The notes beneath the pieces are model-generated. The model saw only the letters and a list, made by a program, of their open reading frames with translations. It did not search any database and was not told the origin of the DNA. From an uncultured Planctomycetaceae bacterium (GTDB lineage Bacteria; Planctomycetota; Phycisphaerae; SM23-33), in the NCBI GenBank assembly GCA_964385465.1, contig CAYLPJ010000003.1:148626-212625 (forward strand): a DNA stretch of 64,000 nucleotides, read 5' to 3'. This document shows, in pieces, positions 11,751-37,900 of this stretch. The translations under genes and the position numbers were made by a program. How positions within the stretch are numbered: position 1 is the stretch's first letter; each line of letters opens with the position of its first letter.

Positions 11751-11779
11751 GCCGACGCGTCGATCGCAGAGGAGCCACC

Positions 11780-12670
11780 ATGTCGGATTCCTTCCTCGTC
11801 AACCCCGCCAGTCGCCTCCGTCCGGATGGCAAGCAGCGCCGCGTCGCGGTGACGGGGGCTGCCGGGCGGATCGGTACGTACTTCGCCGAGAACAGCCCCG
11901 AGCGCTTCGACCTGCTGCTGCTGGATCACCCGGACGCGGACCGCTCCCACCTCGAGCCGCACGGCGAGGTCGCTGCCTGCGACCTGCGGGAGCTTCAACG
12001 GCTGAAGGAACTGCTGGACGGCGTGGACACGGTGCTGCACCTGGCCGCCGAGGCCGGACCGGCAACGACCTGGGGCCCGCTGCTGGAGAGCAACTTCGTG
12101 GGGACCTATAACGCGTTTGTAGCCGCCGAGGCCGCCCGGTGCCGCCGGGTTGTGTTCGCCTCCTCGATCCACGCCGTCTCGGGCTACCCGGCCGAGCGGC
12201 AGGTTCAGGCGGCCGACCCGGTCAGCCCGGGGGACCTGTACGGCGTCAGCAAATGCTTCGGTGAGGCGATGGCGCGGTTCCTGAGCACGCAGCACGGACT
12301 GTCGGCGATCTGCGTGCGGATCGGCGCGTTCCAGCCGGTGGACAAGGCCCGCGAGGCCGACGCGCTGCCGTTGATGAACGCGTTCGTTTCCCGCCGCGAC
12401 CTGCAGCAGTTGCTGGTACGGTGCATCGACGACGAGCGGCTTCAGTTCGCGATCGTCCACGGCTTGTCGAACAACCGCTTCAACCGCATGGACGTCAGCG
12501 AGGCGCGGGAGCTTCTCGGATACGAGCCCCAGGACGACTTCACCGAGCTCAACCGCCGACTGGGGGACCTCGATCTGTCCGGCAGGGTCCATCCGCACAG
12601 CGAGCGCGGCGGCCAGGCCAGCGGAATCCGCGAGGAGCTCGGCGGCCCGGGCAACGAGGGTGGGGTGTAG
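11780..12670 (+). CDS. NAD-dependent epimerase/dehydratase (extended SDR) family protein
   Basis: Rossmann motif VTGAAGRIGT. Catalytic YxxxK (YGVSK). 296 aa. Confidence 0.8.
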   Translation: MSDSFLVNPASRLRPDGKQRRVAVTGAAGRIGTYFAENSPERFDLLLLDHPDADRSHLEPHGEVAACDLRELQRLKELLDGVDTVLHLAAEAGPATTWGPLLESNFVGTYNAFVAAEAARCRRVVFASSIHAVSGYPAERQVQAADPVSPGDLYGVSKCFGEAMARFLSTQHGLSAICVRIGAFQPVDKAREADALPLMNAFVSRRDLQQLLVRCIDDERLQFAIVHGLSNNRFNRMDVSEARELLGYEPQDDFTELNRRLGDLDLSGRVHPHSERGGQASGIREELGGPGNEGGV

Positions 12671-13485: not shown

Positions 13486-13649
13486 CTAAGCGGTCTTGCG
13501 TAAGTTCGTTGGTGTGTGTGCGCCGGATTCGCGTTGGCTGCCAAGGCGGCCGATGCAGGCGATGCCGTGGCATCGCAGGAGCAGGCCAACGCGGGCAGGC
13601 AGCGCGAAGACAAGCACACACGCACCATGACTTACGCAGGACCGCTTAG
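13486..13649. repeat. Long imperfect nested inverted repeat (stem-loop) in the convergent lipB/aceF intergenic region; putative bidirectional terminator or structured element
   Basis: 13486-13505 (ctaagcggtcttgcgtaagt) pairs with 13630-13649 over 20 bp, with one G.U. A second ~10-bp stem pairs 13511-13520 with 13617-13626. Inner hairpins are gcgttggctgcc/ggcagccaacgc-like and gcgatgccgtggcatcgc. Confidence 0.4.
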
Positions 13650-15034: not shown

Positions 15035-15053
15035 GTGTCTTCCTTTCCGCGTC

Positions 15054-17732: not shown

Positions 17733-17772
17733 GCGCGGTCCTTTGTGGCGTCGGGGTCTGTGGCGGCTGCGG

Positions 17773-19179: not shown

Positions 19180-19595
19180 GGCTCTCCCGTGTGCGAATAC
19201 AGTATTTCCGCCGTGTCGGCCGGCGTGGGCCCACCGGCCGTGTCGCGGTATTGTAGCGCGGCAAGACGCCGGCGGACCGGTGGGAATTCTGCGCGCCCCG
19301 GTCAAGGGCGTGTCGGGCAATCCCCCGTACTCTCAAGGGGAACACCCCGTAGCCGATTGGGCAGGCCGGCGGACAGACGGTCCCCGCGTCTTCTCGTTAC
19401 AATCGCGGACAGTTCGGCTTGGAGCGCAAAGCGTGCTGGTTGGAGGCTCGCCCGAAAAGCCCTTCTATCGAGAAGAGATGTTCCCTCGTCGGAGGAAGTC
19501 TCCGCAGGGCGGCGTTCGTCAAGCATCTCGGCGGAGACGAGTCGTTCCGGACGGCCCGCCCTTCCAGGTTGCCGTCCGGTCGGCCGGGGCCGACA

Positions 19596-19700
19596 TGGAA
19601 CGACTTGCCGAACGCTTTTTTATCGCCGTAAGACCAAACACTACGACGTATTAGGCAACACGAACGCAAACCGTGCCCTTTCTTCAGGCACGGGTGACGC
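19596..19700 (+). promoter_or_regulatory. Locally AT-richer island with a T-run and a hairpin in the ~760-nt leader upstream of the giant gene; putative promoter / 5'-UTR element
   Basis: Sequence 'ttgccgaacgcttttttatcgccgtaagacc' followed by the hairpin ccgtgcc-ctttcttca-ggcacgg. It is unusually AT-rich for this genome. No confident -35/-10 assignment. Confidence 0.3.
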
Positions 19701-19930
19701 GGCTGGCGCATACGATCCTTTGTACGCGAATCTCACTTCTGCCCAGGTCAGTTGGACGACAACCGAGATACGAGGGCCACCTCGATCCCCGCTGCGCCGG
19801 CTCCTCCTTGGAGGAACCCTTCCAGCCAGCGCCGATCCAGCACGTCCGGCCGATCTCCATGGCGGTACCGCCCCGTTGCGGCGCGCAGGGTTTCGGTCTC
19901 GATGTACCCGGAGGTCTTCACGGACATAGA

Positions 19931-19936
19931 AGGAGG
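19931..19936 (+). promoter_or_regulatory. Shine-Dalgarno AGGAGG for the giant gene
   Basis: AGGAGG lies 7 nt upstream of the ATG at 19944. Confidence 0.5.
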
Positions 19937-19943
19937 CAGCATC

Positions 19944-22900
19944 ATGGATACGTCGAGCAGCCCGTCTTCGCCCGCTTCGCCCGACGGCTCTCCCGATTCC
20001 GTAGTCCAGGTGGTCACGGTCCCGACCGGAGGCAACCTGCCGTCGATCGAGCCCCTCGAGCCGAGACTCCTGCTGTCGGTCGGGGACGTCACGCTGATGC
20101 AGCAGATGGTCGAGACGCTCGACGCGGCCGGAGAGCACGCCGACCGGCTGCGCTCGGACTTCCTCCGCGGCGCCGATCCGGTGGTCACGTCCGAGACGCT
20201 GCCCGGCACAAACGCCACGCTCGACGAGCTGACGGGGCTGTCGGACTACATGAACGTGGGGACGTACGTGCGGCACTACGTGCACCCGGTGGCTCATCCC
20301 GACGAGGACCTGCCCGGCGGCGACACGCTGCCCGTCGGCCCCGAGGAAGACCCGAGCATCGAGGGCCTGGCCGACTTTCTCGAGGCCAACTGGTTCGGCT
20401 CGCTGTTCGGCGGCGCCCTGGCCGGGACCGAGCTGGACGTCTCCTCCACCACATCCGACCCCGTCACCGACGCGACCATCAGCTTCGCCACCGACCCCGG
20501 CGGGGAGACTTTCACCGCCAGCGTGCCGATCGGCATCAGCGAGGACGTCGCGGGGATCAGCCCGGCCTTCACCGACGTACTGGCTACGTTCACCGTCGAG
20601 TTCGCCTTCTCGTTGACCGTGGACTGGGCCGACGCCGAGCCGGAGTTCTCCTACTCCGTCGACACGCTCGCCGTCGACTTCTTCGCCGTCGATGCCACGC
20701 CGGTAGTCCCCTTCCGGGTCGGGGACCTCGCCGGTTCGGCCGGGCACCCCCAGGAGATCCCGGGCCTGATTACAGCCGGCGTCTACGTGGACGCGCCGCT
20801 GGACACGGTGGCCGGGGAATTCGTTGCCGACTTCGACCCCACCGGCGACCCGGTCAGCTCGATCAGCATGGACTTGCCTGTCCACGCCGTCCTGGCCGGG
20901 CAGGACGTCACGCAAGGCGCCGACGCGCGGGTCATGCTCCAGGGGGACTACTTCGTCGACCAGGGGCGAGGCACCACGCCGGCGACGTTCACCACCCAGA
21001 ACATGGAGAATGTCTCGGACTTCTCCGACGTCACGCTCGACGGGCTCCGCCAGACGCTGGAGTCCCTCCGCGACGACTGGCTTGCCGGCGTGACCTCGAC
21101 GGACGCCTTCAACGTCGAGATCCCCTTCCTGGACTCGACGCTCGCGCAGACCGTCGACTTCGGCACGGCGTTCGACGCCGCCGTGCTGGGGGAGCTCGAC
21201 TTCGACTCGCTCGAAACGCTCCAGGACTTCGAGGCCGAGGCCAGCCGCCTCGGCCTTTTTGCTGACGGGGAATCGCTGAGCTACGATCCCGCCACGCAGA
21301 CGGTCACGCTGCCGCTGGACTTCGCCGTGGACCTCCACGAGCTGGACCTTCGCGGGCTGGACGAACTGGGGCTGACCGACGCCGAGACGCTCGTCGCCGA
21401 GGGGCTCATCCAGATCGACGACCTCGTCGACCCCGACGACCTCCTCGACGAGGGCACGCTGACGCTCAGCGAGCTGATCGACGTCGGCGTGCTGTCGTCG
21501 GCGGACGTGGCCGACTGGGAGGGCATGGACCTCGACGCCGTCGCCGCGGCGGGGCTGATCGGCCCGCGCGGTCTCGACCAGGCCGGGCTCACCGGTCCGG
21601 ACGTGGACCTCGACGAGCTGATGGTCGCCGAGCTGGTCACGCTGGCCGACCTCGTCGAGGCCGACTACGTTACGATCGGCTCGATCGCCTCGCAGCTCGG
21701 GTTCATCAAGGAGGCGAACCTGCTGGCCTCCAACCTGGCCGACTTCGGCTTCGACCTGCTGAGCTTGAGCACCACCACCGACATCGTCGAGGTCGAGGAC
21801 GTCCTCGGCAGCGGCCTGACCGACCTGGAGGAGCTCTTCGACGAGGCCCTGCTCGGTCTCGGCGACCTGGCCGTGGAATCGCTGCCCGTCGATGAGGTCA
21901 TCGCCGCCGGCGTCGCGTCCCTGCACGACCTCGTCGACCAGGGGCTGCTCGTCGCCGACGACCTGCTCGACTCCGTCGTCTTGGCCGTCACCGACATCGT
22001 CGATCAGACCACCGTCACGCTGGTGGACCTCTTCGATCACTCGCTGGTGGGCATCGAGGATTTCGCCTCCGACACCGCCGTGGACCTCGTCGATGTTCTC
22101 GACGAGGGCCTGACCACGCTCCGCAGGCTCGTGGATACCGGGCTGGTCGTCGTGGACAGCTTCCCCGACTTGGACCTCGATCCGGCCGACCTGCTGAACG
22201 AAGGGCTTGTCACGCAGTTCCAGCTCGATTTCAACGAGCTGGTCGAGTCCGGAACGGTCTCGCTCCACCGGCTGGTCAACGAAGAGATCGTCCCGCTGCT
22301 GGACCTCGTGGACGCCGGGCTCGTCGTGGCCGGAGACATCGCGGCGGCGACCGCCTCGCTGTCGGACATCCTGGCCGAGAACCTGTTCGCTGCCCGCGAC
22401 CTGCTGGTCGCCGAGCTGGTGGACGCCGCCGCCCTGGTCCGCGACACGCTGGACGTCCACGATCTCCTGGACAGCGGGGCCGCCCAGTTGGCCGAGCTCG
22501 TCAACGCCGGATTGATCGACGCGTCGGAGTTCCTCGCCGACCAGCTCGACATCCGCGAGCTGATCGGCACGCCGCTGGCGGACCTAGGCGACCTTGCGCG
22601 GGAGAACCTGCTCGAACCGGCGGACGTCGTGCTGGACGCGTGGAAGGAGTCGGAGATCGCCTCCAAGGCCTCCGACCTGCTCTCGGACATCCAGACCAAC
22701 GGGCTGGTCGGGCCCGGGGCGATCATCGACCTAGACCAGCTCGTCACCAACAGCCCCATCCAGCTTGAGCACCTGGTCTACTTCCAGTTGATCTCCCACG
22801 CCGATCTACCGGACCTCGGCACGGTGCCCCGCGGGGACCTGCTGGACGCCGGCATCATCGACGGCAGCATGCTCGAGCGCAACGGGCCCGCCGAGGTCGT

Positions 22901-25900
22901 GGACGCCGGCCTGCTGACGCTCGGCGACCTGGTGGACCTTTCCGAACTCGAACGGGGCGACCTCGCCGACCTGGCGCCGGTGGACCTGGACCTGTTCGGC
23001 TTCGACGCCGCCACCATCGAGGACCTGGACACCGGCGGATTCATCGATCACAGCGACGCCGTATCGATCACCGACCTGGCCGCCCACACGTCGCTGACGA
23101 TCCAGCGGCTGCGCCGCCTGGGGCTGCTTACCGACGGCGACCTCTCCGACGACCTCGGCAACGTGCTGCTGGACGACGTGCTCGTCCAGGGCTTCGTCGA
23201 CCGCGACGACCTGCTGGCCTCCGGCGTCGTCGAGAATGCCAAGCTCGACCCCTACATCACGCAGGATGCGCAGGGCAGGGACGTCGTGCCCGTCGTGACC
23301 CTCACCAGCGTCGGCCTGGCGACCCTGGCCGAGCTCGCCGAGGCCGGGCTTCTGGACCTGACCGACCTGGACGCCACGCTGCTGGGCCTGACGACGGTCG
23401 GCGAGCACGACGTGCTGGCCTCGGGGCTGGTCTCCCCGCGGGCGCTGGACGACAACGGTCTGCTCCAGACCGCTGGCGGGCCCAACGACCGCTCCGTCAA
23501 CGTCGAGGACCTCCTGAAGCTCGAACTGGTCTCCCTGGCAGAGGCCTTCGAGGCCGGGTGGGTCCACATCGCCCACGTGCCCGGGGTCGACATTGCCCTG
23601 GACGGGCTGCTGGCCTCGGACGTCGTCGGCGAGAACGCCCTGGCCGACGAGGGGCTGACCGACGCCGACGTGCCGATCGAGGCCCTCGTCTCGGCCGGGC
23701 TCGCCGACGCCGAGAGCCTCGTGGTCGCCGGGCTGATCCGCCAGAGCGAGCTGTGGGACGCCAGCGCCGTTTCCCTCCGGCGGCTGATCGACGCCGGCCT
23801 GGTGGATACCTCGGACCTCGCCTCCGGCGGCGTGGTGGACCTGGAGGACCTGCTCGAAGCCAACGTCTTGGACCAGAAGTACGTCGACGAGAACGACCTG
23901 GCCGAGACCGTCGCCGGCGAGGAAGACCACATCCTGCTGGAGACCCTCCTGGCCGACGGGAACCTGACCTTCGAGAACCTGGTCACCAGCGGGGCCATCA
24001 CGAGGGACGACTTCGTCAACAAGGCCTTCAACCAGTTCGCACTCGAGGCAACGCTCCTGGAAGGCGAGCTGCTGTTCGACGCCGGCGAGTTCGATGACGT
24101 GGTTCACTTCGGCACGGTCCCGCTGGACACCCTGCTGGACTCGATCCTCTTCGTCACCACGCTGACCGACTACATCGGCCTGGAGTTTGTCGACCATTTC
24201 GACTTCAACAACGTCTCGCTGACCACCGCGAACATCGAGGCGGAGTTCGGCGTGGACGTCGACGCCGCCTTCGAGCCGACCGTCGCCCTGTACGACCTCA
24301 TCGACGAGGACATCCCCGGCGTCTCGCTGACCACACTGGTCATGGCCGACTTCGTCGCCCGCTCCGACCTGATCGACGAGTCCATGCCGCTGGACATCGT
24401 CGAGCTCGAGGCCTCGCCGCTGTTCGAGGAGGGCGACCTGAACAACTTCATCAGCAGGTTCGACGTCTACCTCTACGACGTGATGGAGGACCACTTCGTC
24501 GGCGACCTCGTCCGCGCAGGCCTGGTGGATGCCAACGACCTGATCATCCGCAACTTCGCGGACCTGGCCGACTTCGTCGAAGAAAGGCTGCTCGGCAAGC
24601 AGGACTTCCAGGACGTGGACATCCCCGCCGCGGACCTGACCTCCGCCGGTGTGGCGACCTCGGTGGCCCTGACCGACCGCGGGCTGATCGATGCCGGCAA
24701 CGTCTCGCTGCTGAGCCTGGTCAACACCGACCTGACCGAACTGCCCATCCTCATCGAGCAGGGACTGGTGGACTCCGATGACCTCGCCGCGCACGTCCTC
24801 GCCCGCGAGACCGAGACCGTCCTCAACAGCAACGTCATCGACCAGGCCCTGCTCGACGCCGCCGGCGTGATCACCGGCGCCGAGAACGATCAGGTCACTC
24901 TCAACGGGCCGACCAGCCTGCTCAGCGAGGACCTCGCGGGCATCTACCACCTGGCCCGGACCGGCGTGATCGCCCCGTCCTACCTCGACCCGGCCGCGAC
25001 GGTCGACGCCGACGATCTGCTCTCCACCACGCTGGTCTCCGATGGCGAGCTCTTCGACGCCGGTACGGTGGAACTGCTCACGCCGGGCGAGCTGTTCGCC
25101 GCCGGGCTGGTCTCCCCGGGGGACCTGGGCGTCACCGAGATCAGCCTCAACGCCCTCGACCGGGTCAATGCGATGGACCTGGACGACCTCAGCGACCCCG
25201 ATCTGCTGATTGCCCTGGGCCTGGCGACGGCCGATCGGATCGACGGCGTCGGCAGCGTGGACGTCGCCGAGATCACCGCCGCCGGGCTGACCACCGAGGC
25301 GGACCTGCTGGCTGCCGGGCTGCTCGGTACGCACGTGGACCTGGCCGCCCTGCTCGATTCCGGCCTCGTCACGGCCGAGCAGTTGCTCGACGAGGGGCTC
25401 GACGACCGTAGCGGGCGTGTGCCCCTGGAAGACCTGGTCGACTCCCCCCTGACGACGCTGACCGACCTCCAGACCGCCGGCCTCGTGCCCGCGAGCATTC
25501 CCATCGCCGACCTGGTCGACTCCGGCGAGGTCGCCCTGGCGGACCTGCTGGAAGACGGCGTGGACAAGGCCGCCCTGGTCGCCTCGGCGCTGGGCATCAG
25601 CGAGCAGGACCTCGTCGACGCCGGGCTGTTCGACCGCGGCGTGAACATCGCCGACCTGGTGGCGACGGACCTGGCTACCGCGGAGGACTTGTCGCTCTTC
25701 GGGCTGCTTCCCACGGTGGTCGATCCGGAGGATATGATCCTGTTGAACCTGGTCACCGGCGAGCAGCTCGTCGACGCCGGCCTGATCTCTCAGGCGATCC
25801 TGGACACCGAGGCCTTCGTCCCGGTGCTGCTGACCGACGTGCTCGAGGCGCTGCGGGACGGCGGCGACCCGAACTCCCACCTTGTCACCGTCGCCGACCT

Positions 25901-28900
25901 GGCGATGAACGGCTTCTTCACCGACGACATCGCGCGCGGCGACCTGACCGGCTCGGGCGTGGTCACCGGGGGTGAGCTGGACGACGCCGGCCTGACGGGC
26001 GACCCGATCAATCCCCGCGACCTGCTGATCGCCGGGCTGGTTGCCGGCACCGAGCTCGCCGCCGCCGGGCTGCTGACGCTGACGGTCTCCAAGGACGACA
26101 TCACGAGCCCGGGCTTCGCCGCCGTCGCCGGGGAGGCGGTCACCGAGGCCGACCTCGTGGACGCCGACCTCCTTCGCGGGCGGGTCGATCCGGACGGTAT
26201 CGTCGCCGCCGGCCTGGCCACGCAGGGCCAGCTCGACAGCGAGGGCCTGGCCGCCGAGCCGATCATCCCCCGCGCGGACCTCGATGACCTGCCGCGCGTG
26301 GACGTCGACGCCCTGGACCTCGCCCCCGTGCCGCTGGCCAAGCTGCTGGCCGAGGGCATCGTCGACGAGAACGACCACGTGGACCTCGATGCCGTGCTCG
26401 ACACCGTGCCGACCGGCGAGAACGCCCCGCTGCTCAGCGCCGCCGACCTGGCCCGGCTGGGGCTGATCACGCCCCGCGACCTCAACGGCCACGATCCAAA
26501 CGTCCTGCTGCTCCACGATCAGCCGATCGACCTGAGCGGCGACTACGGCCTGGACCTCGTCGGCCTGGTGACCGACGCAACCGCCGACCTGCGGGCGACG
26601 GCGAGCGGGTCGTTCGACCTGGTCGCCGACGCCGACGGGCCCGCCGGCGGCGGGACGCTCACGTGGACCGTGGACGACGCCGAGCTGACCGCCGAGGTCG
26701 GTTTCGACGTCCGCGACATCGACGCGACCGGGCGGCTGGGCTTCATCGGGGTGACGCTGGCCGACGTCGCCGGCCTCGAGAGCCTGATCCACCTGGACCT
26801 GACGCAGACGGGCGTACTGGACGCCGACGGCAGCCTCGGGACGGACACGGACCGCTCGTTCGCCGCCGGCGAGGTCGCCGCCGGCGATCACGACGACAAA
26901 TGGGTCACCGACACCACCGGCACGGCGGAGGCGACGCTGCGCGGGGTCAAGGTCAACACCGGCCTCGGCGGCGTCCCGGTCGCCCACGGCGCGGAGATCG
27001 TGCTGAGCGTCGAGGACCTGACGCGCGACAAGGACCATGCCGACTACCTCTCCCTGGAGCTGCGCAACCTGCCGGGCATCTTCTCCATCCACGAGCTGTT
27101 GCGGCTGGAGGACCTGCTGACGACGCTGCTCCGCGCCCGCGACTACGTCCGCACGGCCATGGACCAGGTTCCGTTCTTCGTCACCGACCCGGAGTCGCCG
27201 GTCTACGAGTTGCTGGACAGCGTGAAGCTGCCGATTCTCGATCGCTCGCCGGTCGAGCTGCTGACGGTGATCGGGGACATCGACGAGGCGATCACCGACG
27301 TCGAGCGGTTCCTCCGCGATCCCGAGAACGACATCCAGCGGCTCGTCGGCGTGTTGATGAACGCCCTGGGCCTGGACATCGAGGCCGACAGCGACGTCTT
27401 CAGCGTGGCCATGGAGGGCAACGTGCTGAAGGCGAGCCTGAGCATCGACCAGGACGTCAGCGAGACCGTGCCCTTCGATTTCGACTTCTCGGCCCTCGCC
27501 GACGCGTTCGGCGGCAGCCTGCCGAGCGAACTGGACGGGCTGGGTGAGCTGGTCAGCCTCGACGCCGAGGGCGAACTGACGTTCACCGGCTTCGCCGAGC
27601 TGGACGTCCAGGCCGGCGTGGACCTCGGCCCTCGCGCCGAGGACCAGCCGGTGGACAAGTTCCTCTACGACTGGGACGACGGCCTCCAGGCAGGCACGCG
27701 CGTGGCCGCGGGGTTCAAGGTGCTCGGGCAGAACCTCGACCTGGGCTTCGAGGTTTTCGACTCCATCGGCCTGTCCACCTTCAACGGCGCCCAATTCGAC
27801 CTCGACGAGAGCGGGTCGCTCGACGCGACCACCTACAACGCCGACGTGACCATCGACGCCGACGCCGACGTGACCACCAACCCCGAGCTCGGCGACCCGA
27901 ACGACCGCTCGGACTACGTGGCCGTCACGTTCGAGCTGGACCAGCAGCCGGGCACCGGCGTGGACGACGACGGGCTGTATCGCTTCGACGAGACGCTGCT
28001 GGGCGATAACGTGGTCTTCGGCGGCGTCGACGGCGGGTTCGAGGTGCTCCTGCCGCTTGAGATGGACATCTTCGGCGCGACGACGCAGTTCGAGGGCCTG
28101 GGCACCTGGCCGCTGTGGATCCGCACGAACCCGGTCTACGAAAGCGGAACGAATGCGGGGCTGGAGCAGGTCTTCCGCCACGTCTTCAACACCAGCCCGG
28201 GCCCCGACGAGCCCGTGCTCATCGACGCGCCGGACATCACCGGCCAGCTCGGCAACCTGGCCGACAGCGTCATCCGCACGCTGCTGGAGGAGCTCGCCGA
28301 CCTGGTCGGGGACCTCAAGCAGGAGCTGCTCGACGCCGGCCTGCTGGACCTCGAGATCCCTGGCACGAGCACGACGGTGGACGACCTCTTCGGGGCCGGC
28401 AACGACAACGGCCTGCCCGGCGTGCCCACCGCGACGGGAGCCGAGGCGCTGCTGGATATCGACACGTACGTCTTCGAGTACCTCGATACGGTGCAGTGGA
28501 CGGGCTCCAATTCGGTGCAGGACGGCTCGGTCACGCCGGGGGACATCTGGAACGGCCTGGCGACGTTCCTGACCAACCACTGGGTCCCGACCCTGCCGGG
28601 GATCGGCGTGGGCGTCGGCGGGAACTTCATCACGGCCAACGTCTCGGGCGACCAGTTGAGCCTCGACGTCGACGGCAGCTACAGCTTCAACGAGACGGTG
28701 GACGCCGACTTCGGCGAGCACCTCGGCGGGCTGAGCCTGACGATGAATACGCTTGGGATGGACCTCGCCCTGTCGACGCTTCTGAAGTTCGGGTTCGACG
28801 TGGACCTGGGGACCAACGACGTGGAGTTCGACTTCGAGGAGTTCGGTTTCGACGCGTCGTTCGACACCACCACGCTGGACCTCGGGCTGACCTACGAGGG

Positions 28901-31900
28901 CACGGGGCTGACGACGGACGGCGAGGGCGAGGTGGACCTGGACGTCGGCGGGTCGATCCTGCACGACGGGGCGAGTTTCAGCTTCGACCCGGAGAAGAAC
29001 AGCGACGGCGTGTCCGTCCACACCAACCAGGTGGACATCGACCTGCCGCTCGAGCTGACAGGCGGCGGCGGGGTGGACGTCGCGACAGTGACCTTCGCCG
29101 ATTCGGACTTCTACGACGGCCAGTTGGACCCCGGCTTCAGCGCGGACCTGCGAGACGTGAACGTCGTGCTGACCGAGCTGGCCTACCAGGCCCTGGACCT
29201 GCTGGGCGAGGAGATCGAGACGCTCCGGGGCACGCTGATCACGCAGTACGACTCCGAAGGCAACGCGGTCACCTCCGGCAGCTTCCTCGACGAGCAACTG
29301 CCCGGGGTGGACGTCTCGCTGGACCGCATGCTGGGGATCGACTCGATCCTGTCGGTCGGCAGCTACATCCGCCACTACCTCCGGCCCCACCTGGACGAGA
29401 CGGGCTTCGAGCGCGACGAGGCGATCCCCTTCGGCCAGAACGGCGAGGACTACTACGGCGGCGGCGTGCCCACCATGGGCGGGCTGTTCGACTACCTCGA
29501 GAGCACCTGGCTGGAGGGCCTTGGCGGCCAGGCCGGCGGACTGACGTGGGAACTGGACGGCACCGATGCCATCGAGATCACCTACACCGCCAGCGCCCCG
29601 TTCAGCCGGTCCATCGGCATCGATCTCGGCGCCGGGGCCGAGGACATCGGCCTGAGCATCGACGGCGACGCGACCTTCGACATCGACTTCACCCAGGACA
29701 TCGAGGCCGTCATGCGCTTCGACTGGGGAAGCAGCACGGCGGACTTCGAGCTGGATCACTACGACTTCACGGCCGCGGCGTCGGTGGATGACCTCGTCGT
29801 CGGCGCCTCGCTGGGCCCGCTGGATGTGGGCATCGGCAAGTCGGGCGAGGAAGAGGGCGCGATGTCCGTCCGGCTGGGCGGACGGCTGTCCTTCGACAAT
29901 CCCAGCGAGCTGGCCCGGGGCGACCTGCTGTTCACCGCCGGCGACCTGGCGTTCCGGCTGTTCCACGAGGTTGGCGGCCTGCCCAACAACGCCGTCGCCG
30001 CCGACTTGCCCATCTACGCCGAGTTGGGCGGGCAGGCGCTGGGCGGCACGGCGACGTCGAGGCCGCGAGTCGGGCTGGAGGGTGCCCTGTTCCCCACGGC
30101 CGGGGCGCCGGAGCTGGCGTTCACGACCGAGAACCTCGACGAGTTGCTGAACTTCAGCGACTTCAACGTCGGCAGCCTGATCGCGATGCTCCAGGGCACG
30201 CTGAACTGGCTGGACGGGCTGACCGGCTCGGACTTCCTGAGCGCCGAGATCCCCTTCGTGGGGAAGACGCTCGGGGACGTGCTGGACTTCGCCACCACGT
30301 TCAACGACCGCGTGCTGTCGAAGATCGACCCGGCACAGATCGGCACGATACAGGACTTCATCCGCGAGTTCAGCGAGGCCGGCATCCTGCCCGAGGGCCT
30401 GGACGTAACGTTCGACCCCGCCAGCGGCGTGCTCCGCCTGCCCAGCCTGTTCGACTTCAACCTCCACGAGTTCGGCCTGCGGAACCTCCAGAACCTCGGC
30501 GAGGCGAGCTTCCAGAAGCTCGTGGACATCGGCGCGATCGATCCGACCGTCGAGATGTCCAAGCTCACGCTGGTCAACAACCTGCTGGACATGCCGCTGG
30601 TGGGCCTACGCGGGCTGGTGGAATGGGGCCTGGTGGACGGCGACTCCTTCGGCTCGACCACGCTCGCCGTGGCGGACCTCGAGGGCCTCGGCCTGGCCGA
30701 TCCCGGCGACCTCGCCGGCCCGAACATCTCGCTGACGGCGCTGCTGGCAAGTCCGGCTGTGGACCTCCGCCTCGTGGACCTGGTCGACTACGACCTGCTG
30801 TCCCTGTCGGACCTGGCGGCCGGGCAGTGGATCGACTACGACGACCTCATCGACTCCCGCCTGATCACCGCCAGCCAGCTCATCGAGCTGGGCGTGACGC
30901 TGCGCGACCGCAACGACGAGATCACCGAGGACCCGGCCCTGGCGATCGAGGTCAGCCTGGACTCGCTGACATCGCTGAATGCCTTCGATCTCGCCGGGCT
31001 GCTGGACATGGGTTTCGTGGCCGTCGACGAGTTCGATCCGACGACGGCAATTTCCGAGGCCGCCCTGGAGTCCGCCGAGCTCATCGCCGAGGACGCCCTG
31101 GACGGCACGGGGTTGGTCAGCAGCGGGGACATCACGCTGGAGGACCTGCTCAGCGTGGACTCCGGCGTCAGCGTGGCCGTGGCGGACCTGATCGCCGAGG
31201 GCCTGCTGGGTGTCGGCGACCTGGACCTGGGCAACGTGGAGATCGGCAACCTGGGCGTCGAGGGCTTCGACCTCTACGAGCTGGTGGACCTGGGCCTGCT
31301 GACCCAGACCGAGATCACCACGTTCGTCCACGACGAGTTCGGGCTGATGGACGTCCCGCTGGACCTCGGGCTGGACCTCGGCGACGTGCTGGAGCTGGGC
31401 ACCACCGCCACGGTGGACCTCAAGGCGACTGTCGAGGCCGGCTTCGACTGGCTGCTGGACCTCGACGGCCCGACCGGCGAGGAGGGCCTGACGCTGCTGA
31501 TCGACAACGCCCACGTCTCCGGCGAGGCGTGGCTGGACGTCGAGGACCTGGAGTTCTTCGCCGAGCTCGGATTCGTCGGGCTCACCGCGGGCGGGCCGGG
31601 CACGGGCAGCGGCGTGAACCTCTACGCCAAGGCCGAGGCCGCCCTCGACGAGGACGGCGACCTCGCCACAACCGACGACCGCCAGTTCTCGTTCACCGAT
31701 CTGCTGGGCGGGGCGCTGTTCGACGAGCTGGCCTTCGACTTCTCCGGCTACGGGCAGGCGGCGCTGAAGTCCATCGAACTGGCCCAGCCCATCCCCGGCA
31801 TCAGCGACTCGGCCCTGGCGGGCAAGGAGCTGTCGATCACCATCCCGGACATCACCGACTGGGAACAGGTCGACGTGCTCAATCAGGGCGAGTTGACACC

Positions 31901-34900
31901 CTCGGAGCTGGACAGCGAGAGGGACCGCCTCACCGGCCTCGGGCACGTGGTCGTCGTCGTGCCGGACTTCGGCGACGTCTTCAACGTCAGCGACCTCGAC
32001 TTCGCCAGCATCATCCAGGCCATCCGCTCGGCCCTGGACTACCTCGACGACGCTCTCGAGGGCACGAGCTTCTACAACACCACCATCCCCGTCATCAACC
32101 GCTCCATCGACGACGTGATGGACTTCGTCGACGATCTCGCGGCGAAGGTCGAAGAGGCGGCGACGAACCCCGCGGCCGTCATCCAGGACGTCGAGCTGCT
32201 GATCGAGGACGCCCTGGGCATCGACGACGACAACTTCACCGACGGGATGGGCGGCTTCAGCACGACGTACGACGAGACGCTCTACCCGGACCCGGTGGAC
32301 GCGCGGGAGCAGACCTTCGCGTTGTGGCTGGACGGCGAGACGCTGAACATGCACCTGGAGTGGGAGGCCGCGTTCTCCGACGAGTTCGCCTTCTCGCTGG
32401 ACCTGGCGCAGATGAAGGCCCTGGCCGACGGTGCCGGCAACGACTACAGCGTGCTGGAAGGGCTCAACCAGTTCGTCGACGCCGGCGGGCAGGTCTCCTT
32501 CGAGGCCTACGCCACGGCGGTCATCGAGTTGGGCATCGACTTCAGCGAGATCGACACCCAGGGCCTCGGCGGCATCGACTTCTTCCTGCTCGATCACGAC
32601 GAGCAGGGGCCCGGCTCGGCCGACGACATCGGCACGCGGGTCGAGCTCGGCGCCACGGTCATCGCCGAGGACCTCGAGCTGTCCATCCAGCCGTTCGACA
32701 TCGGCATCACCGGCGGCCTGATCCTGCTGGACGCCGACCAGAACGCCGCCACGGACGACGCGGCCACGCTGACGTTCTCGCTGGACCAGCAGAGCGGCGC
32801 CGTCGCCGACGACGGGCGGTTCCGCATCGGCGAGGAGGACATCCTCGACAACCTGGACTTCTCGCTGGCGGGCAACTTCATCGTCGACCTGCCTGTGGAG
32901 ATCCTCGGCATCGGGCTGAACCCGAACCTGACGATCCAGACCAATTCCGCCGACTACGGCAGCGATGCGCTGATGCAACTGTTCCATCACATCGCCGGCT
33001 CGTCGGAAGCCGGGCCGCACGACCCGATCACCTTCACCTTCCCGGACATCACCGGCGCGCTGGGCGGGGACTTCGGCCTGCTGGGCATCCTCAACGATCC
33101 CAGCTACATTCTCGACGGCGTGGACCTCGCACTCGGCGGCGTCCAGGACATCCTCGGCTCCAGCTTCGCCTCCGATATCCCGCTGATCGGCGACAAACTC
33201 GACGACGCGGCCACGTTCATCCGCGACATGCGCCTGGGCTTCCTGGCCGACCTCCGCGAGCGGCTGGACGGCCCCGGCAAGGCGATCGAGTTCCTCCGCG
33301 ACGGCATGTGGGACGTGTTCGGACCGGCAGGGCTGGACATCATCCTGGACCGCGACGGTGACGGGGCGATCGAGGTGGAGGACATCCACGTCGGCTGGTA
33401 TGACGTCGACGGCAACCTGGTCAAGGAGTGGGTCGTCGGCGAGCAGGTGCCCGAGGCGGGCTTCGTCTACGACGAGGACGGCGACTACGTCAGCGACTCG
33501 GGCAGCCCGCCGGCCGGCGGGTTCACCGCCTCGGCCGACGCCGACGCGATCCAGTTCGACCTGACCCTCGGCGGGGTGGCCTTCGGCACGGGCGTGGACA
33601 TCCCGCTGGACATCGATCTGCCCGGCTTCGGCCTGGAGATCGACGGCGGCTTCGCCGTGCAGCTCGACTGGAGCTTCGACTTCGGCATGGGCCTGAGCCT
33701 GGAAGACGGGTTCTACCTGTCCACCAACGACAAGTCCGCCCCGGCCGACCCGGAACTGGAAGTCGAGATCGGCGCGTTCCTGGACGGCAAGCCGCTGGAC
33801 AACGCGCAGATCACCCCGTTCGTCGCCGGCGGCAAGCTGTTGTTCTTCCAGGTGACCGCCACGGATACCGACCGCGAGCCGGGCACGACGGGTTTCCAGC
33901 CCAGCGGCGTCTTCGGCTTCCTCGAGATCGACGCCATGGGCGACGCCTCCACCGGGCGCATGACGCTCAACCACATGCTGTCCACGCCGCTGGACGATCT
34001 CTTCGCCGTGGACCTGGGCGTCGACGCCGGAATGAATCTCGAGTTGAGGCTCGAACTGGCCGGGGTCGAGGGCCTGCCCAGCCTCGCCGCCGACTTCGTG
34101 GTCGACTGGGGTTGGAGCCTCGCCGGCGGGGCCGAGGACCCCGAAATCGCCCTGGAGAACCTCCGCATCGACGTCGGGCCGCTCGTCTCCGACGTGCTCA
34201 AGCCGATCAGCGAGGCCATCGCCGACGTCCTCGAACCCATCGAGCCGGTCATCGACGTGCTGCTGACCCCCATCCCCGGCCTGGACGTTTTGCTCGACGA
34301 TCCCAACCTGCTGGGGCTGATCAACTTCGTCGCCGGGCTGATGGGCTACGGCGAGGTCCCGCCGCAGTTCTTCTATGCCGCCCAGGACATGCTGGAGCTC
34401 GTCCAGCAGGTCGATGCCATGCTCGGCACGGACGGCGAGATCCTCCTCGGCGACGTGCTGGGGCTCGGAACGGACAGCCCGTCGGCCAACCAGGCCGAGG
34501 GGTCCGTCCCCGGCGTGCTCCAGGACTTCCTGGACTCCGTCGCCAGCGACTCGATGGGCGGCGAGCTGATCGCCTCCGGCGCCTCCGGCGGGGCCGTCAA
34601 CGAGCAGCGCAGCGGCTTCGAGATCCTCTCCTACATCACCGACATCGGCAACTGGATGAACCTGCTGACCGGTGGGGACGCCACGCTGTTCACCTACGAG
34701 ATGCCCCTGCTGGGCTACGAGATGAGCTTCAACCAGACGATCGCCACCATCACCGCCGGGCCCGCGGTGATCAAGGTCTCGGCGGTGGGGGGCTTCAGCA
34801 TCACGGCGGACCTCGGCTTCGGGTACGACACGTACGGCATCCGCCGGGCGATCGAGACGGGCAACCCGTGGCTTGCGTTCGACGGGTTCTTCATCGCCGA

Positions 34901-37900
34901 CTACTCCCTGGGCGATGAGTTCGTGGAGAAGGACGAACTGACCTTCGGCGCCGAGATCGGGCTGGAGGCGGCGTTGTGGTTGGCGCTGATCGAGGCGGGC
35001 CTCGGCGGCGTGCTGGGCTTCACCACCGGCATCGACCTCCAGGACGTCAACGACGACGGCAAGATCCACTTCTCCGAACTCGACACGATGTGGAACTACA
35101 CCGGCAACGACGCGCCGGGCGGCCTGCTGAACCTCTTCAACCTCCACGGTGAGGCCTACGCCGAGGCGTATGTGTTCGTGGACGTCGGCATCTCCATCCC
35201 GTTCGTCGGCAAGATCATGAAGCGGGTCGTCGACTGGACCATCGTCGACATCACCCTCGCCGAGTGGGAGTACAACGCGCCCAAGGTCCAGCCCGTGCTG
35301 GCCAGTACCGACGGCGACACCCTCGTCCTGCACACCGGCAAGCGAGCCGGCGACCGCGAGTACCTCGACACCGAGGACGGCGGGGAGCACTTCACCCTCA
35401 CCGGCGACAGCTCGGCCATCGAGGTCGCCTACGGCGAGTGGTCCTTCACCTACGACGACACCACCTACACCAAGGTCATCGCGGACGGCGGCGCCGGCGA
35501 GGATGTCTTCGACGCCTCCGGGCTGACCGGGGTGGACGTCGAGTTCGACGGCGGCGAGGGAGACGACACGCTCACCGCCGGGACGGGCGCGGCCGTGCTG
35601 ATCGGCGGGCCCGGCGACGACCGCCTCCAGGCCGGTTCGGCGACGGGGACGATCACGCTGGACGGCGGCGAGGGCGACGATTTCCTGATCGGCGGCCCGG
35701 GCGTCAACGACCTGACCGGCGGGCCGGGCAACGACCGGCTCACCGGCGGCTCGGACGCCGACACGCTCGCCGGTGGGACCGGCAAGGACACCCTCAGCGG
35801 CGCCGCGGGGGCCGAAACGTACATCTTCGAGGCCGACTTCGGGCCCGACCGCTGGTCCGACTCCGCCGACGCCAGCGTCCTCGACCTCAGCGCCACCACC
35901 GAGAACCTTACCGTCGACATCAGCGCCACCGGAATCAAGATCGCCAGCGACGACGCCGAACTCCGCTTCGGCCGAAGCGAGATCAGCCAGATCATCCTCG
36001 GCACCGGAGACGACGTGCTCCGCATCCGCGACTGGCCGGCCGGAACGCTCCAGATCGAGGACACCGGCGGCTCGGCCACCTACAACTTCGAGTTGGGGCT
36101 CCAGAGCTCCAACAAGGCCGACGGCATCATCGACATCGTCGACAACGATGACGACCACGACGAGATCATCCTCGACAACCTTGTGGGCATGGACCCCGAC
36201 GACAACGTCTTCGACGCGCTGACGATCAACGACCACGAGCTCGTCAACGGCCGGGAGATTATCCGCTACACCGACGGCGTCGAGCAGATCAGCCTGCCGG
36301 TGGTCGAATCGGAGATCGACGACACGGGCGAGACGACGTTCCACATGCGGGACCTGGAGATCGTCTCGACGAACCCCGGCGGGGCGGTGCTGGGCGAGAC
36401 GGACCTGATCGTCGACGCCCGCAACCTGACGGTCTCGACGGACCTCGACGGCGACGGCTTCGTGTTCACCGTCGAGGAGGACGTGGTGCTGGACGGCTCG
36501 GTGCACGCCACCGGGGACATGGACATCGCCTCCGACACGATCGGCAGCAGCGCGGGCGTCGGGCGGGTGGATCACGCAATTGACGCCCACGACCTCGACT
36601 GGCACATCCGCGTCAGCGACGTTATTGCCAACGCCCGCATCAACGCGATCTTCGACGGCAAGCTGGATATTTACGCCGCCAACACGACCCCGGCGGACAT
36701 CATCCTCAACGTGGACATCACGTCCTCCTCGGGCGACACCACCGACGGCCAGGGCGGCGGGACCATGCGCCTGGTCGCCGAGGGCGTGCTGGATATGCAC
36801 AACGACATGCAGTTCCTCGGCGCCGGCGCGCACCTGATCCTCGCGGCCGACAACATCAACAACCACTTCTACGGCGGCTCGAACAAGATCCGCACGACGG
36901 TGGCGGGCCTGACGGTGCTCACGCGGGACGAGGGCGTGGTCTCCGGCAGCGAGATCGTCGTCGAGGAGACCGACAGCCTGGTCGTCCACGGGCTGGACCT
37001 CTCGGACGTCCCCTCGCAGAACCCCGTGGGGCTCAGCAGCGCCCACGGCATCATTCACGTGACGCTGGCGGGCACCGACGCGCGGCTGACCCTCGACACC
37101 GGCAGCATCATCACGCGCGACCCGGGCATGGACATCACGCTGTTCGCCGACGACTTCGACTTCATCCCCTCGCCGCTGGTTCGCGACACCACCACCGACC
37201 GGCCCCGCGGCGGCGTGATCGGCACGGGGCAGCTCACGCTGCGGGCGCCGAACGCCTCGACGTTCATCATGGGCACCGCGGCCGAGCACGAGCTGGGCAA
37301 GGACTGGACGGACCTCGCCGCGGACACGCCGGGCTACACGGCGTTCCCCGAGCACGTGGGCGGCAACTTCAGCGGCCCCGAGGGCGACAAGAGCTACGAC
37401 GAGGACGGGTCGATTTTCCAGGACACGGTGCACCTGTCCACGCGGGACCTGTCGGCGCTGGCGGACGGCTTCACGCTGATCACGATCGGCGACGACGTCG
37501 GCGACGCCAACCCGACGGCGGAGATGCGGTTCGGCGACGCGATGGACGCCGCGATCGTCAAGCACGACGGCTCGCCGCGCGACCGGGACAGCTCCTTCCG
37601 GGACGACGTGATCCTCAACGCCGCGAAGGTGTTCGTCGAGGGCGAGGTCGAGGCGCTCGCGCCGGGCGGCGACCCGCCGATCACGCTGGAGATGAACACC
37701 GACCGCCTCCAGATCAAGGACAAGAACATCCACAACCCGCTGGGCGGGACCGATTCGGGCATCACCGGCGACCTGCTGGAGCTCGACGGCATCCGCGACC
37801 GCATGATCGTCGACGGCTGGGTGCGGACCTGGGGCGACATCCGCGTGAACATCCAGGGCGACGGCGAGTCGTACGTCTCGCCGATGATGACCGACGTCAC

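Follow-up and report, generated by a model that had tools for sequence, protein, structure and literature searches.

How does a protein of 1.44 MDa that lacks a classical signal peptide leave the cell? The window that we analysed (the whole stretch of 64,000 nucleotides, from an uncultured planctomycete) encodes one that starts with a LEPR-XLL box. To our knowledge, the same box opens many of the largest bacterial proteins, among them the two biggest known prokaryotic ORFs, and these proteins lack a recognised export signal. As far as we know, how megadalton proteins exit from the cell has been an open question since the motif was described in 2004. A first-pass annotation of the window had also called the export route an open question, and we found no identified route in the literature that we searched. 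We propose, with a probability of roughly 50%, that the box is a modular linear leader signal that marks the giant for a dedicated export route, via a machine with a truncated SecA, an M50 metalloprotease, and membrane-fusion proteins (MFPs).

The giant protein and its N-terminal box

The giant gene and its parts are:

19944..60869, + strand: whole giant gene (13,641 aa, 1.44 MDa, pI 4.05, net charge -1929, 3 Cys, GC3 0.94)
19930..19936, + strand: Shine-Dalgarno-like AAGGAGG, 7 nt 5' of ATG 19944
19944..20048, + strand: leader, residues 1-35; Ser/Pro-rich, acidic (net charge -3), non-hydrophobic, predicted to be disordered (pLDDT ~40)
20049..20078, + strand: LEPR-XLL box EPLEPRLLLS, residues 36-45; NF012209 match, model positions 2-13 of 24
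20079..21323, + strand: first folded domain, about residues 46-460; helix at 46-76 and long beta-strands after it (AlphaFold2 prediction)
29160..30272, + strand: paralogue of the N-terminal domain inside the protein, about aa 3073-3443, lacking the box (by homology to the N-terminus)
35487..35798, + strand: RTX calcium-binding nonapeptides, six GGxGxDxhx units, aa 5182-5285 (Pfam HemolysinCabind, 33.5 bits; regular-expression count)
59103..59339, + strand: FG-GAP repeats near the C-terminus, best at aa 13054-13132 (Pfam FG-GAP, E = 1.5e-33)
59850..60260, + strand: Big_5-like and dockerin-like segments (20.9 and 18.3 bits, both under the Pfam cut-offs)

Translated from the ATG at 19944, the N-terminus reads MDTSSSPSSPASPDGSPDSVVQVVTVPTGGNLPSI-EPLEPRLLLS-VGDV... 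The LEPRLLL core corresponds to residues 38-44 of the giant protein, and the ExLExRxLL skeleton to E36-x-L38-E39-x-R41-x-L43-L44. The first-pass annotation was right to place an 'EPLEPRLLLS' motif about 35 aa in (it spans residues 36-45 of the 13,641-aa ORF), and residues 1-35 form a Ser/Pro-rich, non-hydrophobic N-terminus as it described. Its coordinates for the motif, 20042-20065, should read 20049-20078: they started 7 nt early, ended 13 nt early, and were out of frame.

Between the upstream stop codon (19695) and the box there are four in-frame starts: TTG 19752, ATG 19902, ATG 19944, and GTG 20010. AAGGAGG occurs nine times over both strands of the window, and AGGAG lies upstream of just 2 of the 13 other window genes. 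Such a site is thus rare in the window, and its presence ahead of ATG 19944 supports this start. GTG 20010 is a possible alternative, which would leave 13 residues ahead of the box instead of 35.

Very acidic and almost free of Cys, the giant is probably a calcium-binding surface protein, with the box directly before its first folded domain. The first-pass annotation had listed 'RTX, lectin, dockerin' for this protein. The RTX part stands (six nonapeptides and a HemolysinCabind match), the dockerin-like segment falls short of its cut-off (18.3 vs. 22.9 bits), and no lectin domain was detected. Pfam identified six FG-GAP stretches altogether, and an Ala/Arg/Pro-rich tail lies downstream of the Big_5-like and dockerin-like segments. 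An Rfam scan of the whole window gave no match.

The giant resembles the LapA/SiiE-type giant RTX adhesins, which are likewise acidic and Cys-poor with repeats and RTX units, and it is probably a surface adhesin. Those proteins have a folded N-terminal retention domain and C-terminal RTX, whereas in the giant residues 1-47 are predicted to be disordered and the RTX is internal. We found no LapB/C/E-type genes near the giant in the window.

Given the protein's own composition, chance would produce 6e-7 E.LEPR.LL matches in its first 60 residues and 1.3e-4 over its full 13,641 residues; for the window translated in six frames, the figure is 4e-4. Even the looser pattern LE.R.LL occurs just once in all six frames of the window, and once in the protein. 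The box is therefore not a chance match.

The motif appears to be already known, as the NCBIfam NF012209 (LEPR-XLL) form of the planctomycete ExLExRxLL N-terminal motif. The first-pass annotation had noted a resemblance to a planctomycete extracellular motif, and this was borne out: NF012209 scores both fragments of the giant and a planctomycete consensus peptide. The giant's copy is a weak member of the family, with a score that depends on sequence context. Against a cut-off of 17 bits, N-terminal fragments of 30, 60, and 75 aa scored 20.0, 18.8, and 18.5 bits, a 200-aa fragment scored 15.3 bits, and for a 4,800-aa fragment nothing was reported at E <= 0.01. The Pfam family for planctomycete extracellular proteins, which the first-pass annotation had proposed as a check, is PF07595 (Planc_extracel; gathering threshold 25.5 bits). 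It gave no match to 21-, 60-, or 200-aa N-terminal fragments at E <= 10, and the positive controls (consensus peptides) scored 35.1 and 39.6 bits. So the check came out negative for PF07595, and NF012209 scored above its cut-off on the 30- to 75-aa fragments only (18.5-20 bits).

As in the NF012209 family ('LEPR-8K' or LEPR-XLL), the LEPRxLL core of the giant sits among the first 50 residues, and the protein is of extracellular type and very large; the name refers to about 8,000 aa, and the giant has 13,641. The family continues S-A-D-L after an Arg-rich leader, whereas the giant continues S-V-G-D after an acidic Ser/Pro-rich one. With PF07595 the giant shares the ExLExRxLL skeleton and the N-terminal position, but the PF07595 consensus has RRL before the box and Asp/Ser/Ala at x, where the giant lacks RRL and has Pro at x. 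The consensus of the planctomycete motif is given as RRLxxExLExRxLLA (Studholme 2004, as cited in PMC8567305). This motif has been tied to the largest surface proteins of planctomycetes, and box proteins of Tuwongella immobilis were in the SDS-soluble fraction, where outer-membrane proteins were recovered (PMC8567305). NF012209 and PF07595 describe one motif class, because NF012209 scores the planctomycete consensus and because one homologue of the giant (P0002) has a PF07595-type variant, LEDRRLLA, at the position equivalent to LEPRLLLS.

The leader and box as a module without a signal peptide

None of the four candidate starts yields a basic n-region plus a hydrophobic core, which in a Sec-type signal peptide spans at least about 8-10 residues. 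This agrees with the first-pass annotation, which saw neither a classical signal peptide nor an upstream in-frame start with one (TTG 19752 and ATG 19902 give none). The best 10-residue Kyte-Doolittle window of the N-terminal region is the box itself, at 1.82, vs. 1.9-3.1 in nine classical signal peptides. No twin-arginine motif (S/T-R-R-x-F-L-K before an uncharged h-region) was found ahead of the box: RR pairs occur only upstream of ATG 19902, where charged, non-hydrophobic sequence comes after them, and the starts from ATG 19902 onward have no RR between themselves and the box. In the closest homologue (L201), a stop codon immediately precedes the first Met, which leaves no room for a signal peptide. 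Judged by hydropathy and charge only, the box appears to be neither a Sec nor a Tat signal peptide.

The box is also separate from the fold that follows it. In an AlphaFold2 model built with 47 sequences, residues 1-47 had a pLDDT of about 40, the value rose above 90 from residue 50 onward, and the predicted fold of the giant's N-terminus begins at residue 46. (Foldseek found no significant match of the first domain in the PDB; the best hit had E = 0.095 and TM < 0.1.) The internal paralogue aligns to the N-terminus from D48, three residues past the box, and lacks the box. Given the disordered residues 1-47 and the internal copy of the domain without a box, the leader and box form a separate module.

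Homologues show the same modularity. An exhaustive HMMER search found the first domain in 61 homologues, while a word-indexed search with the first 400 residues found 1. Homologues P0001, P0009, P0012, P0013, P0028, P0030, P0044, and P0047 have an N-terminal box, and NF012209 scores for homologues ranged from 21 to 34 bits. LEPRLLLS is identical in P0001 and P0009 with differing flanks, and P0001 has about 330 additional residues between the box and the shared domain.

These results make it highly improbable that the box lacks a signalling role and instead caps the first domain structurally or is a low-complexity sequence that matches by chance, with the true start perhaps elsewhere. The marginal, context-dependent NF012209 score would fit such an explanation, as would the atypical leader and its GC3 (0.80 for residues 1-35 vs. 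0.93 downstream). But the chance expectation is 6e-7, and LEPRLLLS is conserved between homologues whose flanks are not. Also, residues 1-47 are unstructured in the AlphaFold2 model, the domain has an internal copy that folds with no box ahead of it, and all four candidate starts are upstream of the box.

Box-bearing giants and the genes beside them

A survey of metagenomes gave 124 box matches in 120 loci. The match is N-terminal on a long ORF in 64 of the 124 (some of these ORFs exceed 4,110 codons), and in 48 of the 69 whose frame has a coding GC3 signature. The domains behind these boxes are of extracellular type but mutually unrelated: cadherin-like, FG-GAP, RTX, PKD, beta-helix, and proteases. 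Thus, in these loci the box is strongly enriched at the N-terminal ends of extracellular-type giants other than ours. PF07595 matched only 2 of 49 metagenomic LEPR proteins. When we compared a profile of 63 leader boxes to 5.8 billion proteins, we found only fragments of at most 98 aa, two of which led to loci L202 and L203.

Positions that were not constrained by the search are conserved as well: L/F/V at -1 (70%), S at +9 (61%), A at +10 (64%), and D at +11 (44%), and positions -4 to -11 are rich in Arg. Over the 20 residues that precede the box, the mean charge is +4.4 in the 64 metagenomic leaders (zero or below in only 6 of them), and the net charge is -1 in the giant, where LLLS is followed by V-G at +10/+11. 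The giant's leader, which is acidic and Ser/Pro-rich instead of Arg-rich, is atypical for LEPR-XLL proteins.

The typical leaders might suggest an unusual Sec signal peptide, with a basic n-region, hLL as a minimal h-region, and a signal-peptidase I site at (S/A)(A/G), that is handled by the housekeeping SecA/SecYEG translocon. They are Arg-rich, and the small residues at +9/+10 (S/A, then A/G), followed by D, loosely fit the -3/-1 rule. But the would-be h-region includes two Glu and an Arg, with only 3-4 hydrophobic residues in a row. The best 10-residue hydropathy of the 64 leaders has a median of 1.51, compared with 1.9-3.1 for the nine classical signal peptides, and every one of the 64 stays below 2.4. 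The giant's own leader lacks a basic n-region (net charge -3), and V-G stands at +10/+11. Furthermore, a megadalton cargo that folds outside would require a second system to cross the outer membrane. We consider this explanation improbable.

A Pfam census of 121 ORFs that neighbour metagenomic LEPR genes showed no family with more than 4 members, and a separate signature search found no ABC-ATPases among them (0/121). The census did include two matches to SecA, whereas a random set of 121 neighbouring ORFs should contain about 0.05 SecA paralogues. In related loci, the genes beside the giants encode a DUF3467 protein, a GAF-MFP, a PqqD/M50/HlyD fusion, a truncated SecA of about 660 aa, and an MFP, sometimes accompanied by SapC or TolC. 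The cluster adjoins LEPR genes in its complete form in L202 and L143 and also lies beside the LEPR gene of L140; single components are near the LEPR genes of L114, L146, L159, L161, L173, and, weakly, L107. Reciprocally, starting from the M50 fusion, we examined 12 loci, of which 10 have a giant or large gene adjacent, and all 8 giants with a visible N-terminus have the box. The cluster-linked giants are 7,555-12,918 aa, and NCBI names one of them 'LEPR-XLL domain-containing protein'. So, the cluster is linked to LEPR giants in other genomes.

The SecA-like protein aligns to residues 56-550 of SecA (E = 1e-104). It comprises NBD1-PPXD-NBD2, so it retains the preprotein cross-linking domain, and it lacks the C-terminal region through which SecA engages SecY. 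In the M50 fusion we found HELGH, eight TM-like segments, and matches to PqqD. Public annotations of the cluster proteins are generic only ('SecA', 'prepilin peptidase', 'PqqD family protein'). Named strains with the linkage are Rhodoblastus acidophilus, Mesorhizobium ciceri R30, Methylosinus sp. C49, and Pseudosulfitobacter sp. DSM 107133; in Methylosinus, TolC is downstream of the cluster. All cluster loci with a named organism are proteobacterial, a point against the proposed machine in this planctomycete, and the rest are unassigned metagenome contigs. The plasmid and NCBI-named loci are from Alphaproteobacteria, and the name of one homologue refers to Thiohalocapsa, a genus of Gammaproteobacteria.

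Counting against this candidate machine, 56 of the 64 metagenomic LEPR genes have no cluster component nearby, and the same is true of 12 of the 16 genes whose upstream flank is 6 kb or longer. The cluster is also absent from the window, where tblastn with 26 cluster proteins found only weak similarity to a generic RND MFP at 9901-11160. Similarly, the only secretion genes in the 20 kb upstream and 3 kb downstream of the giant were a generic RND pump and its MFP. The Lpd encoded nearby has its best match, among 185,579 species genomes, in a Phycisphaerae MAG (58% identity); the gene order in that MAG differs, and it has no giant gene.

The gene linkage is also compatible with a role for the box in retention or processing instead of targeting. 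In particular, the giant could be exported by classical type I secretion, with an unrecognised C-terminal signal and ABC/MFP/TolC components encoded elsewhere in the genome, and the box, as the last part to emerge, would serve in retention, anchoring, or processing. LapA-type RTX adhesins do carry an N-terminal retention module. The giant's RTX repeats, pI of 4.05, and mere 3 Cys in 13,641 residues are typical of calcium-folded type I cargo, and the linked cluster includes MFP and TolC genes. A LEPR-XLL giant from Vibrio bears RTX and serralysin domains at its C-terminus (PMC10868602). The LEPRxLL giants of Chlorobium chlorochromatii, which 'lack known signals', adjoin sapC and tolC, and a preprint proposes that they are exported C-terminus first through sapC/tolC (bioRxiv 10.64898/2026.03.19.712371). 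But in our giant, the RTX block is about 8,350 residues from the C-terminus, not adjacent to it, and the last 200 residues are the Ala/Arg/Pro-rich tail. We found no C-terminal motif or sorting signal common to the complete LEPR ORFs, several of which look frameshifted. ABC-ATPase signatures are missing from the 121 neighbours, the window has no type I secretion genes, ABC exporter, or TolC, and the linked ATPase is SecA-like with its preprotein cross-linking domain kept. We view type I export as rather unlikely.

A candidate export machine

Our preferred reading is that the box lies outside any fold and most likely tags the unfolded giant for dedicated export. Judging from the genes that adjoin box-bearing giants in other bacteria, the leading candidate for the machine would be type-I-like and span the envelope. 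Its parts would be a truncated SecA motor; a polytopic M50 (site-2) metalloprotease with a PqqD-like N-terminus and an HlyD-like adaptor C-terminus; two further membrane-fusion proteins; a small DUF3467 protein; and, in some loci, SapC and TolC. PqqD domains bind leader peptides, and the box may be bound by the PqqD-like domain or by the SecA clamp. Translocation would then proceed from the N-terminus, powered by ATP hydrolysis by SecA. The leader might be removed by the M50 site near LL(S/A)(A/G), and calcium would fold the giant outside the cell. We infer every one of these steps, as well as the machine's existence in the source organism.

By analogy, the box system resembles double-glycine/PCAT/type I leaders and RiPP leaders, in that a short, linear N-terminal leader would be recognised. 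As in PCAT and type I systems, a dedicated ATPase, a protease, and an MFP (and TolC) are encoded beside the cargo, and as in RiPP leader recognition there is a PqqD-like domain, which here lies in the membrane protease. PCAT and type I systems use an ABC ATPase and a C39 protease for peptide cargo, whereas here we see a truncated SecA, an M50 protease, and cargo of 7,500-13,000 aa. The register of the box is like that of double-glycine leaders (E at -8, hydrophobic residues at -4 and -12), but this is an analogy only: -7 is Pro, and there is no C39/ABC partner.

More tentatively, the LEPR-XLL/Planc_extracel box might be the leader peptide of an undescribed megadalton secretion system, in which SecA and PqqD-M50-HlyD replace ABC/C39 and act with MFPs, DUF3467, SapC, and TolC, and the same route might be used in planctomycetes, Chlorobium epibionts, and Proteobacteria. 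If so, the giant's acidic leader would mean that recognition depends on the box alone and needs no Arg-rich n-region. The motif in the window is itself one more, rather atypical, example, and the linkage to the cluster is more useful. Because this linkage occurs in named, sequenced strains, the question of how these giants are exported is directly testable there by genetics.

The box at the N-terminus of the giant

A single plus-strand reading frame of the window (69% G+C) is open from 19695, where an in-frame stop lies, to its own stop codon, which ends at 60869. We took 19944 as the start because AAGGAGG, which is rare in the window (only 9 occurrences in the 128 kb of both strands), lies 7 nt ahead of this ATG; even AGGAG lies upstream of only 2 of 13 other window genes. 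The encoded protein ("the giant") has 13,641 amino acids, a mass of 1.44 MDa, a pI of 4.05, a net charge of -1929, and three cysteines.

Features near the start of the giant gene (window coordinates)
13646-19320, - strand: pyruvate dehydrogenase genes lpd-aceE-aceF
17773-19320, - strand: lpd
19321-19943: divergent intergenic region (~620 nt), the true spacer upstream of the giant gene
19752, + strand: in-frame TTG
19902, + strand: in-frame ATG
19944, + strand: in-frame ATG
20010, + strand: in-frame GTG
20049-20078, + strand: EPLEPRLLLS (the box), residues 36-45 of the giant

The operon upstream, lpd-aceE-aceF, is divergent. An 837-aa ORF with an ATG start (17416-19929, + strand) that ends just ahead of the giant gene is an antisense artefact, a shadow of lpd, because it matches nothing in Pfam and does not show the GC3 signature of coding frames. 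The closest Lpd relative, from a Phycisphaerae MAG (L072, 58% identity), has the order aceE-aceF-lpd instead; the remaining relatives found are ~50% identical and mostly from Gammaproteobacteria. Besides the pyruvate dehydrogenase operon, the window encodes two sulfatases, a GNAT acetyltransferase, a phosphatase, an RND pump with its MFP, a rhodanese, an epimerase, Fpg, and a phosphoribosyltransferase. None of the window's genes points to a secretion system, and Rfam had no match in the window.

The first-pass annotation had reported an LEPRLLLS-like motif about 35 residues into the protein. Translation agrees, and only the coordinates proposed for it (20042-20065) need correction: they overlap the box but are shifted and out of frame. 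From the giant's own composition, the expectation for E.LEPR.LL in the first 60 residues is 6e-7, and LE.R.LL is found a single time in the window's six frames and a single time along the whole giant. The box is beyond chance, and that it has no function is hardly credible.

The motif had also been likened to one in large planctomycete extracellular proteins. The Pfam family in question (PF07595, Planc_extracel) does not match the giant's N-terminus even at E <= 10; as a positive control, it gives 35-40 bits to peptides modelled on the consensus in the literature, RRLxxExLExRxLLA (PMC8567305). NCBIfam's NF012209 ("LEPR-XLL domain-containing protein") does match, at residues 34-45, with 18.5-20 bits for N-terminal fragments of 30-75 aa (the cut-off is 17). 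It gives 15.3 bits for a 200-aa fragment and reports no match for a 4,800-aa fragment, and its alignment covers just the front half of the model's 24 positions. Because the planctomycete consensus peptide also gets 19.7 bits from NF012209, the two models describe one motif class, which supports the suggested resemblance. This is a bona fide LEPR-XLL box, though marginal and atypical. As a new, atypical member of an already known motif family, it is of modest interest alone.

As first noted, there is no classical signal peptide: by hydropathy, none of the four candidate starts, upstream ones included, puts a hydrophobic core behind a basic n-region. The top 10-residue hydropathy window of the N-terminal region (1.82) is the box itself, while nine textbook signal peptides reach 1.9-3.1. 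Nor do the leaders of metagenomic proteins with the box contain a classical hydrophobic core: among the matches listed, their best windows have a median of 1.51 and all stay below 2.4. The giant has no Sec or Tat signal, and a minimal Sec signal made of leader and box, with the box as its most hydrophobic part, is quite improbable.

A separate N-terminal module

A word-indexed search for relatives of the N-terminal region found only P0001, on a 9-kb Logan contig (L201). Its N-terminus is MGIYNWLGVGMKCERMERGGSPLWSLEALEPRLLLSAD, with a stop codon immediately ahead of the first Met; past a frameshift, its sequence matches residues 389-1767 of the giant at 43% identity. P0001 has ~330 additional residues between the box and the shared domain. 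HMMER, run exhaustively against 1.84 billion representative proteins, gave 61 homologs of residues 1-600. Ten with intact N-termini have the box (P0001, P0009, P0012, P0013, P0023, P0028, P0030, P0044, P0047, and P0002). In P0009 it reads LEPRLLLSVG, as in the giant, and P0002 has a PF07595-type variant at the equivalent position (...RRRRCGLLHEQRKLTIEPLEDRRLLAIE). The other homologs with intact-looking N-termini, such as P0003 and P0015, lack the box.

In an AlphaFold2 model of the N-terminus (47 sequences, mean pLDDT 83.9), residues 1-47 have pLDDT ~40 and no secondary structure. A helix at residue 46 opens the confident fold (pLDDT >90), which extends to residue ~460 (window 20079-21323). 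This first domain recurs once within the giant (aa ~3073-3443, window 29160-30272), and the internal copy, which aligns from D48, three residues past the box, has no box. Given the predicted disorder, the box-less internal copy, and the insertion in P0001, the leader (residues 1-35) and box are an N-terminal add-on outside any fold. The box is a disordered N-terminal module on an acidic, calcium-binding protein.

Within the predicted domain, the helix is followed by beta-strands of 17-20 residues. Foldseek found no significant match to it in the PDB (best E 0.095); the insignificant top matches were pore-forming toxins. Further along, aa ~48-2770 appear to be duplicated at aa ~2940-4374, and tandem repeats (window ~39066-44078, aa ~6375-8045; ~100-200 aa spacing, 26-35% mutual identity) were assigned no Pfam family. 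A Gln-rich segment (11.7% Q; window ~52944-55943, aa ~11001-12000) is probably a long coiled coil, since it has weak SMC/Rad50/ASRP-type matches, far under cut-offs, in addition to its Gln content.

The RTX block of the giant is in mid-protein, and its C-terminal 200 residues (window 60261-60866), an Ala/Arg/Pro-rich tail after a dockerin-like segment, have no recognisable sorting signal. C-terminal T1SS export of this RTX protein, with the box used for retention, seems unlikely to us. The tail has three DVLA/DVLG motifs and terminates in ...GAACPLWARRK; a metagenomic protein with the box, L126, likewise terminates in ...ASDVLA. A C-terminal signal shared between the giant and the metagenomic proteins was not established.

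The box and its gene neighbors in metagenomes

A search of metagenome contigs for E.LEPR.LL in GC-rich codings gave at least 124 matches at at least 120 loci. Among the matches listed, 64 of 124 are at most 150 codons after a stop and 5-139 codons downstream of the earliest potential start, and they open ORFs that are long (some >4,110 codons) or contig-limited; of 69 listed matches whose frame shows the GC3 signature of coding sequence, 48 are N-terminal. The seven box columns were fixed by the search pattern. Unconstrained positions are conserved among these matches: L/F/V at -1 (70%), S at +9 (61%), A at +10 (64%), and D at +11 (44%). Ahead of the box there is an Arg-rich stretch (-4 to -11), and the 20 preceding residues have a mean net charge of +4.4. 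In contrast, the giant's leader is Ser/Pro-rich, as the first-pass annotation stated, and acidic (-1 over its last 20 residues, -3 overall), and V-G-D instead of A-D-L follows LLLS.

The proteins headed by the box are mutually unrelated, with no invariant column beyond those seven (among the matches listed). They carry domains of extracellular type: SdrD_B, DUF4347, Big_9, cadherin-like, FG-GAP, BNR, beta-helix, PKD, RTX, Calx-beta, and proteases. PF07595 matches only 2 of 49. The box heads unrelated giants of extracellular type.

A sub-family of leaders (L092, L118, L125, L140, L171, and L197) has a longer conserved stretch ahead of the Arg-rich part, (I)PSLFEIFFGKLANWxRKLAQWRKQGLLKKALQ..RRR..(L/M)E.LEPR. 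Several contigs (L135, L116, and L126) have two genes with the box; those of L135 (13137 + and 10877 -) are divergent, with a common ...LLSAS(L/I)LKDI(D/N) continuation.

A Pfam census of 121 ORFs adjoining metagenomic genes whose products open with the box (LEPR genes) found no dominant partner family. P0083, a short gene fragment with the box, led us to locus L202, where five genes precede the LEPR gene.

Genes upstream of the LEPR gene at L202 (cluster at 2371-9681)
DUF3467 protein
GAF/HlyD-like MFP, 627 aa
723-aa protein: 8 TM-like segments, HELGH, and a barrel-sandwich domain at the C-terminus
659-aa SecA-like protein, matching SecA residues 56-550 (E = 1e-104)
272-aa MFP with a classical signal peptide

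The family of the 723-aa protein carries Pfam's Peptidase_M50 and PqqD (the "M50 fusion"). Given the extent of its match and the domain boundaries of SecA, the SecA-like protein is seemingly C-terminally shortened: NBD1, PPXD, and NBD2 seem to be present, and the C-terminal part seems to be missing.

At L143 (3311-9617), four of these proteins are encoded in the same order directly upstream of the LEPR gene, and at L140, which is of the long-leader type, the SecA-like gene abuts it. Single components adjoin the LEPR genes at L114, L146, L159, L161, L173, and, weakly, L107. Among the matches listed, components are near 8 of 64 LEPR genes, or 4 of the 16 whose upstream flank is 6 kb or longer. 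By chance, ~0.05 SecA paralogs would be expected among the 121 neighbors.

A candidate exporter for LEPR-XLL giants

For a reciprocal test, we started from the M50 fusion (at least 4,883 family members) and examined 12 loci from the protein collection and PLSDB plasmids.

Giants at cluster loci
Cohaesibacter sp.: 8,512 aa, directly downstream
Rhodoblastus acidophilus: 7,555 aa, directly downstream
Terrihabitans rhizophilus: 10,071 aa, directly downstream
L207 (3.97-Mb ENA contig): >5,100 aa, directly downstream
L209 and L210: giants upstream, N-termini beyond the locus
L208: no giant within 10 kb
L211: too short to show whether a giant adjoins
Methylosinus sp. C49 plasmid: 8,847 aa, TolC after the cluster
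Alisedimentitalea scapharcae plasmid: 8,148 aa, SapC divergent
Pseudosulfitobacter sp. DSM 107133 plasmid: 12,918 aa, "LEPR-XLL domain-containing protein" in NCBI's annotation
Mesorhizobium ciceri R30 plasmid: 10,518 aa
Further cluster loci: L204-L211
Clusters on plasmids: NZ_AP022333.1 171890-180566; NZ_CP085155.1 316680-324477; NZ_CP088148.1 48597-55951; NZ_CP123586.1 152652-158600
NZ_CP123586.1 183224-183350, - strand (L215 426-550): leader and box region of Alisedimentitalea scapharcae

All eight readable N-termini of giants have a basic leader and then (E/D)xLEPRxLL(S/N/A)AD. In Alisedimentitalea scapharcae, the basic leader and the box (LEPRLLLAAD) are in frame just ahead of the annotated Met, so the annotated start of this "calcium-binding protein" is too far downstream. 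The labels that NCBI gives to the proteins of the cluster are unspecific or mistaken ("preprotein translocase subunit SecA", "PqqD family protein", "efflux RND transporter periplasmic adaptor subunit"), and several records label the SecA-like protein as "prepilin peptidase" or "DEAD/DEAH box helicase". In Proteobacteria, the box is genetically linked to a cluster of truncated SecA, M50-PqqD-HlyD, and MFP genes, sometimes with SapC or TolC.

Our literature search found no published description of this linkage. According to a 2026 preprint, the LEPRxLL giants of Chlorobium chlorochromatii lack known transport signals and have sapC and tolC beside them, and a horizontally acquired secA is elsewhere in that genome; the preprint does not connect secA with the giants, sapC, or tolC (bioRxiv 10.64898/2026.03.19.712371).

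We propose that the box would be the recognition element for the machine encoded by the cluster, since PqqD domains bind leader peptides and the PPXD of SecA clamps preproteins. Translocation would start at the N-terminus, the M50 site may remove the leader, and calcium would fold the cargo outside the cell. The cluster is a candidate exporter of LEPR-XLL giants, and it may also serve the window's own giant. The value of the finding is this lead to a specific candidate exporter, which occurs in named, sequenced strains and is thus open to testing there.
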